Of a stretch of 64,000 nt of DNA, positions 42,174 through 49,921 are shown in pieces. A model generated the notes under the pieces. The model had not been told where the DNA came from, did not search any database, and saw nothing but the letters and a program-made list of their open reading frames with translations. Numbering within the stretch: the first letter of the stretch is position 1; the number at the start of each line of letters is the position of its first letter. Made by a program: the position numbers and the translations under genes. The stretch lies in NCBI RefSeq assembly GCF_003334305.1, contig NZ_QOWS01000011.1; one strand, given 5' to 3'. This stretch comes from Escherichia coli. GTDB taxonomy: Bacteria; Pseudomonadota; Gammaproteobacteria; Enterobacterales; Enterobacteriaceae.

Positions 42174-45065
<2,892 letters not shown>

Positions 45066-45085
45066 ATGAGTAAAAAGGTAACAAT

Positions 45086-45589
45086 ATGACCGGTATGACG
45101 AATGTAACAAAGCTGGCCAGCGAGCCGTCAGGCCAGGAATTTCTGGTATTTACCCTTGGTGATGAAGAGTACGGTATTGATATCCTGAAAGTGCAGGAGA
45201 TCCGTGGCTACGATCAGGTAACACGGATTGCGAACACGCCAGCGTTTATCAAAGGCGTCACGAATCTGCGCGGGGTTATTGTGCCGATTGTTGACTTACG
45301 AATTAAGTTCAGCCAGGTGGATGTGGACTATAACGACAACACGGTAGTTATCGTCCTGAATCTCGGACAGCGGGTGGTCGGCATCGTGGTTGACGGCGTC
45401 TCAGACGTGCTTTCATTGACGGCGGAGCAAATTCGTCCGGCACCGGAATTTGCCGTGACGCTTTCAACAGAATATCTCACTGGACTGGGCGCACTGGGCG
45501 ACCGGATGTTGATTCTGGTGAACATCGAAAAACTGCTGAACAGCGAAGAGATGGCGCTGTTAGATAGCGCGGCGTCAGAAGTGGCGTAA
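45086..45589 (+). CDS. cheW: chemotaxis coupling protein CheW (167 aa)
   Basis: ORF translation [42 protein letters not shown]... Confidence 0.9.
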
Positions 45590-45615
45590 TTCTCCCGATT
45601 TCCTCAATTGAAATG

Positions 45616-45646
45616 AACCCGATGATCTGCGCATCGGGTTTTTTAT
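45616..45646 (+). terminator. rho-independent terminator after cheW
   Basis: AACCCGATG-ATCTGCG-CATCGGGTT followed by a T-run. Confidence 0.75.
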
Positions 45647-45675
45647 TTCAATTTCGCGGCGGGTGGCATCAGCAA

Positions 45676-45702
45676 TAAAGTTTCCCCCCTCCTTGCCGAT
45701 AA
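45676..45702 (+). promoter_or_regulatory. sigma28 promoter of tar-tap-cheRBYZ
   Basis: TAAAGTTT-N11-GCCGATAA, a perfect consensus match, about 30 nt upstream of the tar ATG. Confidence 0.85.
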
Positions 45703-45733
45703 CGAGATCAACTTGTTTTCAGGAAGGTGCCTT

Positions 45734-47395
45734 ATGATTAACCGTATCCGCGTAGTCACGCTGTTGGTAATGGTGCTGGGGGTATTCGCACTGTTACAGC
45801 TTATTTCCGGCAGTCTGTTTTTTTCTTCCCTTCACCATAGCCAGAAGAGCTTTGTGGTTTCCAATCAATTACGGGAACAGCAGGGCGAGCTGACGTCAAC
45901 CTGGGATTTAATGCTGCAAACGCGCATTAACCTGAGTCGTTCAGCGGTACGGATGATGATGGATTCCTCCAATCAACAAAGTAACGCCAAAGTTGAATTG
46001 CTCGATAGCGCCAGGAAAACATTGGCGCAGGCAGCGACGCATTATAAAAAATTCAAAAGCATGGCACCGTTACCTGAAATGGTCGCTACCAGTCGTAATA
46101 TTGATGAAAAATATAAAAACTATTACACAGCGTTAACTGAACTGATTGATTATCTAGATTATGGCAATACTGGAGCTTATTTCGCTCAGCCAACCCAGGG
46201 AATGCAAAATGCAATGGGCGAAGCGTTTGCTCAGTACGCCCTCAGCAGTGAAAAACTGTATCGCGATATCGTCACTGACAACGCAGATGATTACCGATTT
46301 GCCCAGTGGCAACTGGCGGTTATCGCGCTGGTGGTGGTATTGATTCTGCTGGTGGCGTGGTACGGCATTCGCCGTATGTTGCTTACTCCGCTGGCAAAAA
46401 TTATTGCTCACATTCGCGAAATCGCCGGTGGTAACCTGGCGAATACCCTGACCATTGACGGGCGCAGTGAAATGGGCGACCTGGCGCAGAGCGTTTCACA
46501 TATGCAACGCTCTTTGACTGACACCGTCACTCATGTCCGCGAAGGTTCAGATGCCATCTATGCCGGTACCCGTGAAATTGCGGCGGGCAACACCGATCTT
46601 TCCTCCCGTACTGAACAGCAGGCATCCGCGCTGGAAGAAACTGCCGCCAGCATGGAGCAGCTCACCGCGACAGTGAAGCAAAACGCCGATAACGCCCGCC
46701 AGGCCTCGCAACTGGCGCAAAGTGCCTCCGACACCGCCCAGCACGGCGGCAAAGTGGTGGATGGCGTAGTGAAAACGATGCATGAGATCGCCGATAGTTC
46801 GAAGAAAATTGCCGACATTATCAGCGTTATCGACGGTATTGCCTTCCAGACTAATATCCTCGCGCTGAATGCCGCGGTTGAAGCCGCGCGTGCGGGTGAA
46901 CAGGGCCGTGGTTTTGCCGTGGTGGCGGGTGAAGTGCGTAATCTTGCCAGTCGTAGCGCCCAGGCGGCAAAAGAGATCAAAGCCCTCATTGAAGACTCCG
47001 TCTCACGCGTTGATACCGGTTCGGTGCTGGTCGAAAGCGCCGGGGAAACAATGAACAATATCGTCAATGCTGTCACTCGCGTGACTGACATTATGGGCGA
47101 GATTGCATCGGCATCGGATGAACAGAGCCGTGGCATCGATCAAGTCGCATTGGCGGTTTCGGAAATGGATCGCGTCACGCAACAGAACGCATCGCTGGTG
47201 CAGGAATCAGCTGCCGCCGCCGCTGCGCTGGAAGAACAGGCGAGTCGTTTAACGCAAGCGGTTTCCGCGTTCCGTCTGGCAGCCAGCCCACTCACCAATA
47301 AACCGCAAACACCATCCCGTCCTGCCAGTGAGCAACCACCGGCACAGCCACGACTGCGAATTGCTGAACAAGATCCAAACTGGGAAACATTTTGA
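45734..47395 (+). CDS. tar: methyl-accepting chemotaxis protein Tar (553 aa), ends with the NWETF pentapeptide
   Basis: Two TM segments, HAMP, methylation sites and signalling domain; C-terminus ...DPNWETF (47378-47392). Confidence 0.9.
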
Positions 47396-47440
47396 CGAGT
47401 ATTTACTAACGCGGTCATTGCCGCCTGATGGGGAGCGTTG

Positions 47441-49042
47441 ATGTTTAATCGTATTCGAATTTCGACCACGCTGTTTTTAATTTTGATTCTCTGCGGGATC
47501 TTGCAGATTGGCAGTAACGGCATGTCTTTTTGGGCATTTCGCGACGATTTGCAACGACTGAATCAGGTCGAGCAGAGCAATCAGCAACGTGCGGCATTAG
47601 CGCAAACTCGGGCGGTAATGTTACAGGCCAGTACCGCGCTGAACAAAGCGGGCACTCTGACGGCGCTTAGCTATCCGGCGGATGACATTAAAACGTTGAT
47701 GACGACGGCGCGCGCCAGTCTGACGCAATCCACCACGCTGTTTAAAAGTTTTATGGCGATGACTGCGGGCAACGAGCACGTCAGGGCGTTGCAAAAAGAG
47801 ACGGAGAAAAGTTTTGCCCGCTGGCACAACGATCTCGAACATCAGGCGACCTGGCTTGAAAGTAATCAACTTTCGGATTTCCTCACTGCGCCGGTGCAGG
47901 AATCACAGAATGCGTTTGACGTTAACTTTGAGGCCTGGCAGCTGGAGATCAACCATGTGCTGGAAGCCGCCAGTGCGCAAAGCCAGCGTAACTATCAGAT
48001 TTCGGCGCTGGTGTTTATCAGCATGATTATTGTTGCGGCGATCTACATCAGCAGTGCGCTGTGGTGGACGCGCAAGATGATTGTTCAACCACTGGCCATT
48101 ATCGGTAGCCATTTTGACAGCATTGCTGCGGGTAATCTGGCGCGTCCGATTGCGGTATATGGTCGTAATGAGATCACCGCCATTTTTGCCAGCCTGAAGA
48201 CCATGCAGCAGGCTTTGCGTGGGACGGTGAGTGATGTGCGTAAGGGAAGCCAGGAGATGCACATTGGTATCGCGGAGATTGTCGCAGGCAATAACGATCT
48301 CTCAAGTCGTACCGAACAGCAGGCGGCATCGCTGGCACAAACGGCCGCCAGTATGGAGCAATTAACCGCCACGGTAGGGCAAAACGCCGATAACGCACGA
48401 CAGGCGTCGGAACTGGCAAAAAATGCCGCGACAACGGCGCAGGCGGGCGGTGTTCAGGTCAGTACCATGACTCACACCATGCAGGAGATCGCCACCAGCT
48501 CGCAAAAAATTGGCGACATTATCAGCGTTATCGACGGAATTGCTTTCCAGACCAATATTCTGGCCCTGAATGCGGCAGTGGAAGCGGCTCGCGCCGGAGA
48601 GCAGGGGCGTGGTTTTGCGGTAGTGGCAGGTGAAGTACGCAATCTTGCCAGCCGTAGCGCGCAGGCAGCAAAAGAGATCAAAGGGCTGATCGAAGAGTCA
48701 GTCAATCGTGTCCAGCAGGGTTCGAAACTGGTGAATAACGCCGCCGCGACCATGATCGATATTGTCAGTTCGGTGACCCGCGTGAACGACATTATGGGAG
48801 AAATTGCCTCTGCGTCGGAAGAACAACAGCGGGGGATTGAGCAGGTTGCACAGGCTGTCAGCCAGATGGATCAGGTGACTCAGCAGAACGCCTCGCTGGT
48901 AGAAGAAGCGGCGGTGGCAACGGAACAACTGGCGAATCAGGCCGACCATCTTTCGTCGCGTGTGGCGGTATTTACCCTTGAAGAACATGAAGTAGCACGA
49001 CATGAGTCGGCGCAGTTACAAATTGCGCCAGTGGTATCCTGA
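47441..49042 (+). CDS. tap: methyl-accepting chemotaxis protein Tap (533 aa), no C-terminal NWETF
   Basis: Paralogous to Tar with a near-identical signalling domain; ends ...LQIAPVVS. Confidence 0.9.
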   Translation: MFNRIRISTTLFLILILCGILQIGSNGMSFWAFRDDLQRLNQVEQSNQQRAALAQTRAVMLQASTALNKAGTLTALSYPADDIKTLMTTARASLTQSTTLFKSFMAMTAGNEHVRALQKETEKSFARWHNDLEHQATWLESNQLSDFLTAPVQESQNAFDVNFEAWQLEINHVLEAASAQSQRNYQISALVFISMIIVAAIYISSALWWTRKMIVQPLAIIGSHFDSIAAGNLARPIAVYGRNEITAIFASLKTMQQALRGTVSDVRKGSQEMHIGIAEIVAGNNDLSSRTEQQAASLAQTAASMEQLTATVGQNADNARQASELAKNAATTAQAGGVQVSTMTHTMQEIATSSQKIGDIISVIDGIAFQTNILALNAAVEAARAGEQGRGFAVVAGEVRNLASRSAQAAKEIKGLIEESVNRVQQGSKLVNNAAATMIDIVSSVTRVNDIMGEIASASEEQQRGIEQVAQAVSQMDQVTQQNASLVEEAAVATEQLANQADHLSSRVAVFTLEEHEVARHESAQLQIAPVVS

Positions 49043-49060
49043 AGTGATTGAGAAGGCGCT

Positions 49061-49921
49061 ATGACTTCATCTCTGCCCTGTGGGCAAACGTCTTTATTGT
49101 TACAGATGACCGAGCGCCTGGCGCTTTCCGACGCGCATTTTCGGCGGATAAGTCAATTGATCTATCAACGAGCCGGGATCGTTCTGGCTGACCATAAACG
49201 CGACATGGTTTACAACCGACTGGTTCGTCGTTTGCGTTCGCTGGGACTGACGGATTTCGGTCATTATCTGAACTTGCTGGAATCTAATCAGCACAGCGGT
49301 GAGTGGCAGGCGTTTATCAATTCGCTGACCACGAATCTGACGGCATTTTTCCGTGAGGCACACCATTTCCCTCTGCTCGCGGATCACGCACGTCGCCGTT
49401 CTGGCGAGTATCGCGTATGGAGCGCGGCGGCTTCGACCGGCGAAGAGCCGTACAGCATTGCGATGACGCTGGCTGACACATTGGGCACCGCGCCCGGACG
49501 CTGGAAAGTGTTTGCCAGTGATATCGACACCGAAGTGCTGGAAAAAGCCAGAAGCGGTATTTATCGCCATGAAGAGTTGAAAAACCTGACGCCGCAGCAA
49601 CTGCAACGGTATTTCATGCGAGGGACGGGACCGCATGAAGGGCTGGTACGCGTGCGTCAGGAGCTGGCGAACTATGTTGATTTTGCCCCGCTGAATCTAC
49701 TGGCGAAACAGTACACCGTGCCGGGGCCGTTTGATGCGATCTTCTGTCGTAACGTCATGATCTACTTCGATCAAAATACCCAGCAGGAGATTTTGCGCCG
49801 CTTTGTTCCGCTCCTTAAACCCGACGGATTGCTGTTTGCGGGTCACTCTGAAAACTTTAGCCACCTTGAGCGCCGCTTCACGCTGCGTGGTCAGACGGTG
49901 TATGCGCTAAGTAAGGATTAA
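49061..49921 (+). CDS. cheR: chemotaxis methyltransferase CheR (286 aa)
   Basis: SAM-dependent MCP methyltransferase in ORF translation. Confidence 0.9.

Follow-up and report, generated by a model that had tools for sequence, protein, structure and literature searches.

Rare in-frame deletions fuse the tandem chemoreceptor genes tar and tap in natural isolates of Escherichia coli

The tandem chemoreceptor genes tar and tap are fused into a single gene in a few natural isolates of Escherichia coli. A search of 5,426 complete E. coli genomes with an in-silico Tar-Tap chimera found natural in-frame chimeras in three of them (ET474, PEC389 and ETEC4088). Each carries one 535-codon gene (1608 bp) between cheW and cheR, with a one-piece 100% match to the in-silico chimera. 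The fusions are in-frame deletions of 1701 bp and derive from two independent events. The junction of fusion A (ET474, PEC389) lies inside a 24-bp run of exact identity between the two genes and that of fusion B (ETEC4088) inside an 18-bp run. We are confident that tar and tap are a canonical pair of old paralogues, that their similarity comes from protein conservation, and that a rare in-frame 1701-bp deletion fuses both genes.

The tar-tap pair and the similarity of its signalling regions

Coordinates refer to the window, the whole stretch of 64,000 nucleotides that was analysed. The ORF list and translations place tar on the + strand at 45734-47395 (553 aa, C-terminus ...DPNWETF) and tap on the + strand at 47441-49042 (533 aa, C-terminus ...LQIAPVVS, without NWETF); the tap ATG at 47441 is the start used in the RefSeq annotation. 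Tar matches the NCBIfam equivalog NF011622 (MCP-II/Tar) with 1200 bits (cutoff 900, residues 1-553 of 553), and Tap matches NF007309 (MCP-IV/Tap) with 1183 bits (cutoff 903, residues 1-533 of 533). The gene order is cheW-tar-tap-cheR, as in E. coli. The tar gene adjoins cheW on its downstream side, lies behind a sigma-28 promoter motif and is the first gene of its operon. The consensus of the flagellar sigma-28 (FliA) promoter is TAAAGTTT-N11-GCCGATAA. The pair is the canonical one of E. coli and opens the sigma-28-driven tar-tap-cheR-cheB-cheY-cheZ operon. The features of the region are as follows.

45615..45641, +: terminator-like hairpin and T-run just past cheW, found by pattern scan; by its position it probably ends the motA-motB-cheA-cheW unit
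45676..45702, +: predicted sigma-28 (FliA) promoter upstream of tar, a perfect match to the consensus TAAAGTTT-N11-GCCGATAA (read from sequence)
45734..47395, +: tar, aspartate/maltose chemoreceptor (MCP-II), 553 aa (ORF, NF011622, RefSeq)
46560..47230, +: signalling-domain homology block, tar copy, Tar aa 276-499 (alignment; repeat families D1 and D2)
46678..46695, +: 18-bp exact identity run, tar copy; junction of fusion B (ETEC4088)
46813..46836, +: 24-bp exact identity run, the longest, tar copy; junction of fusion A (ET474, PEC389)
47378..47392, +: codons of the Tar C-terminal pentapeptide NWETF, CheR/CheB docking (translation; PMC4692393)
47396..47440, +: tar-tap intergenic spacer, 45 bp (sequence)
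47430-47435, +: GGGGAG, Shine-Dalgarno-like motif in the tar-tap spacer (sequence)
47441..49042, +: tap, dipeptide chemoreceptor (MCP-IV), 533 aa (ORF, NF007309, RefSeq start)
47560..47567, +: GAATCAGG, left copy of the 8-bp microhomology of the B2-type 1374-bp tap deletion (right copy at 48934-48941)
48261..48931, +: signalling-domain homology block, tap copy (alignment and repeat search)
48379..48396, +: 18-bp exact identity run, tap copy
48514..48537, +: 24-bp exact identity run, tap copy

The tar-tap-cheRBYZ (meche) operon of K-12 has the same genes, order, lengths and termini, with NWETF on Tar only. Nucleotide identity over 4.5 kb is 99.7% to K-12 MG1655 and BW25113 and 100% to strain AR_452. 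The differences from K-12 are a few strain-level SNPs (e.g., a private A at tap nt 1197) and nothing substantial. The gene is annotated as tar in RefSeq genomes with 99.7-100% identity, and this identity to the characterised K-12 tar suggests that Tar senses aspartate and maltose-binding protein. At the C-terminus of a receptor, NWETF is the docking site for CheR and CheB and the tether of high-abundance receptors; Tap and Trg are low-abundance receptors, about as long as the Tap described here (PMC4692393). This Tap is 20 residues shorter than Tar and has the short C-terminus of the low-abundance type. The tether of Tar recruits CheR and CheB, and the tetherless Tap relies on tethered neighbours for adaptation. 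Shine-Dalgarno motifs are plausible for both genes, so the sequence alone offers no explanation of the difference in abundance. The original prediction had the coordinates of both genes exactly right and their identities correct, and its placement of NWETF on Tar alone agrees with the translated C-termini.

The two signalling regions are in register and lie 1701 bp apart, a distance divisible by 3. A single diagonal holds 32 of the 37 11-mers shared by tar and tap (0.7 expected from shuffles), and an independent repeat search returned repeats of 300 nt (77%) and 185 nt (74%), again spaced by 1701 (families D1 and D2). Between 46560-47230 and 48261-48931 the identity is 75% at the protein level and 72% at the DNA level. 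Within a 56-residue core (Tar 361-416) the proteins do not differ and the DNA is 86% identical; the sensing halves have diverged to 10-40% aa identity. Exact identity is uninterrupted over 24 bp in the longest run, followed by runs of 18 and 16 bp. SNPs in tar (nt 1101 and 1095) shorten the 24-bp run in some lineages, leaving 21 or 15 bp. A run of 24 bp is borderline for a minimal uninterrupted segment of identity of about 20-30 bp. The signalling domains had been described as near-identical, which overstates a similarity that is complete only in the protein of the 56-aa core. Several hundred bp of tandem homology had also been proposed; the homology is indeed in register over such a length, but the DNA identity is not high and is patchy, with exact runs of at most 24 bp.

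Fusion genes and the deletion pathway

The switch from Tar to Tap is clean in both fusions: 799 of 802 and 801 of 802 informative sites fit a single breakpoint in the 24-bp and the 18-bp run, respectively. With 37 SNPs separating their flanks beyond the switch zone, the two events are independent. If in-register breakage is uniform over the 671 bp, the probability that both events fall in the two longest runs is about 0.004. The exact fusion proteins recur in public data, one on 71 contigs (140 index blocks) and the other on 28 (58 index blocks), and the context is always cheW-fusion-cheR. The isolates are from wild and livestock sources (frog, pig) and the alleles persist in lineages. At one locus (L022), fusion A is accompanied by 12 SNPs clustered upstream, from either a third event or the same event with later recombination of the flank; it was conservatively counted with the existing fusion A event.

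As direct repeats with an offset of 1701 bp, the two copies share one reading register, which makes an in-frame hybrid gene possible. Exchange or slippage at one of the few long exact runs would on rare occasions remove 1701 bp. The gene that is left would take its sensing domain, HAMP and first methylation helix from Tar, and its hairpin, second methylation helix and tetherless tail from Tap. Natural isolates record at least two such fusions, at the 24-bp run and at the 18-bp run. The hybrids are expected to keep aspartate/maltose sensing and to lose dipeptide taxis and Tar's own tether.

The reciprocal Tap-Tar chimera gave no one-piece match in the 5,426 complete genomes; the top matches in this search were ordinary genomes or unrelated small deletions. 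Unequal recombination, as suggested in the original prediction, is thus borne out for the deletion (three genomes, two events) and not for a Tap-Tar duplication product. The identity is as low and patchy as the original prediction would have counted against homologous recombination, yet chimeras were found; the substrate is poor and recombination is rare.

Other deletions are also found at the locus. A 1374-bp intragenic deletion between 8-bp GAATCAGG repeats is the B2-type tap loss, and its junction is present in 1,059 of the 5,426 complete genomes, which makes it the commonest natural variant of the locus. Unlike the fusions, it is confined to one gene, tar stays intact and a tap remnant is left. 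It is unrelated to the tar/tap homology. Partial coverage of the locus made about 1,100 genomes chimera candidates at first; they carry the tap deletion at the 8-bp repeat and were rejected. That phylogroup B2 / uropathogenic E. coli have lost tap was reportedly described by Lane et al. in 2006 and Borziak et al. in 2013, and passages in PMC12623472 and PMC3559539 restate it. Two further deletions were found, one of 222 bp in tar, in frame and at GAACAG-GCCGTGG repeats, and one of 81 bp in tap.

The 1701-bp deletion would have taken either a RecA-dependent or a RecA-independent pathway. Identity of 72-86% should strongly inhibit RecA/MutS-policed recombination. The minimal processing segment for RecA-dependent exchange, said to have been defined by Shen and Huang in 1986, is of about the size of the 24-bp run. 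Since there is one run of about 24 bp and the flanking identity is 72-86%, the homology is at the margin for RecA-dependent recombination, and the deletion may have used a pathway other than classical homologous recombination. The chance falls just short of even that the fusions came from RecA-independent short-homology deletion (replication slippage or single-strand annealing) and not from RecA-mediated unequal crossing-over; the paralogy would then matter solely as a source of in-frame direct repeats. The low flanking identity, the clean junctions without mosaic heteroduplex patches and the lack of a reciprocal duplication product among the 5,426 genomes are consistent with such a deletion, as are the 1374-bp, 222-bp and 81-bp deletions, which occurred at much shorter, imperfect repeats unrelated to paralogy. 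The use of the two longest runs (24 and 18 bp) counts against it, though both pathways predict that outcome. Moreover, 24 bp is also the reported minimal RecA segment, and a spacing of 1.7 kb is long for slippage, the efficiency of which drops steeply with the distance between repeats.

Gene conversion and assembly artefact

Tandem tar-tap pairs are also present in three outgroup loci, where all tap copies are frameshifted or rearranged and that of L011 is too rearranged for use. In the outgroup comparisons, paralogue identity is 0.71-0.72 within species and 0.70-0.72 between species, and orthologue identity is 0.74-0.83. The third codon positions of tar and tap are 48-56% identical (48% over the full block). 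The same codon is used at 0.47 of the identical residues (0.37 expected from codon usage), and synonymous sites are near-saturated. Among 11 tar and 9 tap alleles of E. coli no conversion tracts were detected, with no tract longer than two sites, and the minor allele equals the paralogous base at 8 of 22 and 5 of 16 informative sites, close to the one third expected by chance. Codon saturation, the cross-species identity matrix and the scan of population polymorphism thus gave no sign of gene conversion, and the suggestion that the tandem homology could support it is not upheld by the alleles or the three outgroup loci. It was concluded that tar and tap are old tandem duplicates without the signature of concerted evolution.

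It is very unlikely that ongoing gene conversion (concerted evolution) maintains the similarity of the signalling-domain DNA. Two observations agree with it: identical codons are somewhat more frequent in the hairpin core than expected (0.57 vs 0.38, z = 3.1), and the 24-bp run slightly exceeds the random-synonymous null (mean 15, P about 0.02). Low third-position identity, polymorphisms that match the paralogous base at the chance rate in tracts of at most two sites, and paralogues that are as alike between species as within, and less alike than orthologues in all three outgroup comparisons, argue against it. The codon excess in the core leaves room for ancient conversion or residual ancestry. 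Under the preferred reading, that of old paralogues held alike by protein conservation, selection on the protein would keep the cytoplasmic signalling hairpin constant while the sensing halves diverge, and the DNA similarity (72%, core 86%) would be mostly a by-product and not the result of recent exchange.

Repeat collapse is a known failure mode of assembly, but it is hardly credible that the single 535-codon genes are collapsed paralogous repeats, as the longest shared word (24 bp) and the local identity (72-86%) are too low for an assembler to collapse, the same two alleles occur in closed genomes from different laboratories and countries and in the dozens of independent assemblies that hold the contigs counted above, the reading frame is kept and the junctions are precise.

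Known hybrids and meaning of the natural alleles

This is one of the best-studied bacterial signalling loci, and the original prediction as written adds nothing new to it: both the pair of genes and its NWETF pattern belong to textbook knowledge, and laboratory Tar-Tap fusions have been known since 1987. Slocum, Halden and Parkinson (J Bacteriol 169:2938) are said to have obtained spontaneous tar-tap deletions in that year by recombination between the homologous 3' regions, and Weerasuriya, Schneider and Manson (J Bacteriol 180:914) reportedly engineered Tar-Tap hybrids at the linker/HAMP region in 1998. The laboratory hybrid transducers join N-terminal Tar to C-terminal Tap in frame, as the natural alleles do. 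Unlike the 1998 hybrids, the natural fusions are joined in the hairpin, and they come from wild or livestock isolates and not from the laboratory. A full-text literature search for natural tar-tap fusions, hybrids or chimeras returned nothing.

The fusions provide a clean natural case of in-register deletion between 72%-identical tandem paralogues at their longest exact runs, with no gene conversion. Among wild E. coli, Tar-Tap hybrids are in circulation, and both fusion proteins carry a plain Tar annotation in public records. Pipelines label them as ordinary Tar because the hybrid scores 1049 bits against the Tar equivalog, above the cutoff of 900. Annotation-based counts of chemoreceptors would therefore miss the loss of Tap and of the Tar NWETF in fusion strains. 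It is improbable, though less so than conversion, that the two alleles are kept by selection in animal-associated lineages (pig, frog) as an aspartate/maltose receptor with a tetherless Tap adaptation module. If they are, adaptation kinetics or the composition of the receptor array would be altered and dipeptide/pyrimidine taxis discarded, and a natural receptor-rewiring polymorphism would lie hidden under the annotation name 'Tar'.

The tar-tap pair and the likeness of its signalling domains

The chemoreceptor genes tar and tap are arranged with their neighbours as motB-cheA-cheW-[tar]-[tap]-cheR-cheB-cheY-cheZ, and the original prediction gave both ORFs with exact coordinates.

Features of the tar-tap region in the window
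45615-45641, + strand: terminator-like hairpin 3' of cheW, upstream of tar (pattern scan)
45676-45702, + strand: perfect TAAAGTTT-N11-GCCGATAA motif upstream of tar (read in the sequence)
45734-47395, + strand: tar, ORF of 553 aa
47441-49042, + strand: tap, ORF of 533 aa
46813-46836 and 48514-48537, + strand: longest exact run shared by tar and tap, 24 bp (tar/tap comparison)
46678-46695 and 48379-48396, + strand: second exact shared run, 18 bp (tar/tap comparison)

The motif at 45676-45702 matches the sigma-28 consensus. The 4.5 kb at 45000-49500 shows 100% identity to E. coli AR_452 and 99.7% identity to K-12 MG1655 and BW25113, in which the genes are named tar and tap. Tar scored 1200 bits against the NCBIfam MCP-II equivalog (cutoff 900) and Tap 1183 bits against the MCP-IV equivalog (cutoff 903), both at full length. 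The translated C-termini bear out the prediction that NWETF, the CheR/CheB docking pentapeptide, is present on Tar and absent from Tap (LQIAPVVS). NWETF as a mark of high- versus low-abundance receptors is textbook knowledge (PMC4692393). The pair and its mutual homology are also textbook matter.

The signalling domains had been described as near-identical. Their homology was confirmed and is strictly in register, position x of tar corresponding to x+1701 of tap: 32 of 37 shared 11-mers fall on this diagonal (0.7 expected from shuffling), and an independent repeat search returned two blocks at a spacing of 1701, one of 300 nt (77%) and one of 185 nt (74%). Near-identity was not found, as 46560-47230 and 48261-48931 are 75% identical in protein and 72% in DNA, with codon positions 1, 2 and 3 identical at 83%, 84% and 48%. 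In the 56 residues of the hairpin tip (Tar 361-416) the protein is identical to Tap and the DNA just 86% identical. The sensing halves share no more than 10-40% protein identity, and the third-longest exact run is 16 bp. Where aligned residues agree, tar and tap also share the codon in 47% of cases versus 37% expected from operon codon usage, the excess being centred on the core (0.57 vs 0.38, z = 3.1). When the synonymous codons of tap were randomly redrawn, the longest run averaged 15 bp and 24 bp was reached in 2% of trials. These codon-use and redraw results indicate that most of the DNA similarity comes from protein conservation. Synonymous sites are close to saturation.

Natural Tar-Tap fusions

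The proposed population check for tar/tap chimeras was carried out with an in-frame Tar(N)-Tap(C) recombinant, built in silico, as query against 5,426 complete E. coli genomes. Ordinary genomes matched in two pieces (93.9%). Three genomes gave an unbroken match to the whole query (100%): ET474 from frog faeces in China, PEC389 from a pig in Korea and ETEC4088 from a pig in Belgium. The count of 3/5,426 holds because any in-register chimera should outrank the two-piece matches, and only these three do. In these strains one 1608-bp gene occupies the cheW-to-cheR interval, with cheA through cheZ intact. The ET474 and PEC389 loci are identical, and a breakpoint within the 24-bp run accounts for 799 of their 802 tar/tap-distinguishing sites (fusion A); in ETEC4088 a breakpoint within the 18-bp run accounts for 801 of 802 (fusion B). 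With every distinguishing site scored, the Tar-to-Tap switch is clean and single in all three; the misfits are ordinary SNPs (e.g., the window's private tap SNP). Outside the switch zone, 37 SNPs over 6.6 kb separate the backgrounds of fusions A and B, and the fusions are therefore two independent 1701-bp in-frame deletions. The probability of both breakpoints falling in the two longest runs, if uniform over the 671-bp block, is about (44/672)^2 = 0.004. Identical fusion proteins also occur in the broader set of public assemblies, with 71 contigs carrying junction A and 28 junction B, every time in the context cheW-fusion-cheR and under the name "methyl-accepting chemotaxis protein II". A reciprocal Tap(N)-Tar(C) query gave no one-piece match in the 5,426 complete genomes. 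Thus the suggested unequal recombination is supported in its deletion product but not in its reciprocal Tap-Tar product.

Another fusion-A locus (L022, GCA_042245035.2) has 12 SNPs relative to the others. They cluster upstream, between cheA and nt 192 of the gene, and several are common to the fusion-B background. Either the flank recombined later or the 24-bp run was the site of a third independent event. The 24-bp run itself varies among E. coli lineages: C-to-T at tar nt 1101 (extracted loci L001, L013, L014 and L016) shortens it to 21 bp and T-to-A at nt 1095 (L015) to 15 bp, so that the propensity for fusion A should differ between lineages.

Deletion pathway, other rearrangements and gene conversion

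The analysis shows that exact-run length sets the deletion site. RecA-mediated exchange would be possible at the 24-bp run, though the flanking identity of 72-86% would hinder it. RecA-independent slippage or annealing is a serious rival and about equally likely as the source of the 1701-bp deletions, since the same locus is deleted at much shorter repeats outside the tar/tap paralogy (deletions of 1374, 222 and 81 bp), the fusion junctions are clean and the reciprocal product is missing.

Other deletions at the locus (window coordinates; L loci in their own coordinates)
47560-47567 and 48934-48941; junction L001 4060-4071: GAATCAGG 8-bp repeats flanking the tap deletion
46893-46911 and 47115-47133; L006 3760-3778: 222-bp in-frame tar deletion
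about 48320-48429; L008 4756-4784: 81-bp (27-codon) in-frame tap deletion

The 1374-bp (458-codon) intragenic deletion between the GAATCAGG repeats has the same junction in 1,059 of the 5,426 complete genomes and is the typical tap loss of phylogroup B2, type strain DSM 30083 included; in RefSeq the remnant is called 'Tar ligand binding domain-containing protein' and marked as frameshifted. Tap loss in B2 and uropathogenic strains was already known (PMC12623472, PMC3559539). The 222-bp deletion, between imperfect GAACAG-GCCGTGG repeats (GEQGRG and DEQSRG codons), removes 74 hairpin residues and is carried by strains 673 and PI24, and probably by strain 472. The 81-bp deletion in tap's first methylation helix leaves a Tap of 506 aa in at least five complete genomes (LD39-1, 30COLEC, LR-33, NCTC9066 and FDAARGOS_1250).

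IS1 adjoins the locus in some strains (L002 2248-2945; L007 5034-5731). In MB50 it lies immediately upstream of tar with uspC beyond, indicating that flhDC through cheW is absent; in 2023CK-01509 IS1 cuts tap at nt 1191 and the rest up to argS is absent. Three public proteins (P0019, P0021 and P0036) join the Tap N-terminal sensing domain to CheZ, CheB-methylesterase or FlhB Pfam domains; such proteins presumably arose from other deletions joining tap to downstream genes.

Gene conversion between tar and tap, also suggested, found no support in cross-species identities or in an allele scan. Three outgroup loci with Tap orthologues (sensing half 59-74% identity; one labelled Enterobacter) all retain the tar-tap-cheR tandem. 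In the signalling block, tar/tap identity is 0.71-0.72 within species and 0.70-0.72 between species, and orthologues are closer (0.74-0.83). This pattern indicates that the duplication is older than these genera and that no homogenisation of the two copies has followed. The allele scan took 11 distinct tar and 9 distinct tap alleles from diverse E. coli and covered polymorphic sites at which the paralogues carry different bases. The minor allele is the paralogous base at 8/22 tar and 5/16 tap sites (chance about one third), and no tract is longer than two sites. The outgroup tap genes (L010 5001-6603, L011 5001-6653 and L012 5001-6601) are all frameshift-split or rearranged, which is probably a selection effect, as the protein search gave truncated products, and may not mean general tap decay.

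Make-up and naming of the hybrids

Slocum, Halden and Parkinson reportedly described Tar-Tap hybrid transducers in 1987 and are said to have explained spontaneous tar-tap deletions by recombination of the two homologous 3' regions, the same hypothesis as in the original prediction. Tar-Tap hybrids were reportedly engineered by Weerasuriya, Schneider and Manson in 1998. A full-text search, with most subscription journals outside its coverage, returned no paper on tar-tap fusion alleles from nature.

In Tar numbering, junction A falls at residues 360-368 and junction B at 315-321. Both hybrids retain the Tar sensing domain, HAMP and first methylation helix (sites 295, 302 and 309) and gain the Tap hairpin, second methylation helix and short tail without NWETF. 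Because its 1049 bits exceed the Tar equivalog cutoff of 900, the hybrid is labelled 'tar / methyl-accepting chemotaxis protein II' by the NCBI pipeline (2601-4208 in L003, L004 and L005), and this annotation masks the loss of tap and of the NWETF tail. What is new amounts to a minor population-genomic footnote: two mis-labelled Tar-Tap hybrids are in circulation, with junctions at the two longest runs. The fusion strains have lost Tap and also Tar's own CheR/CheB tether; judging from the literature on trans-assistance (PMC4692393), the hybrid would be expected to rely on the receptor Tsr for its adaptation.
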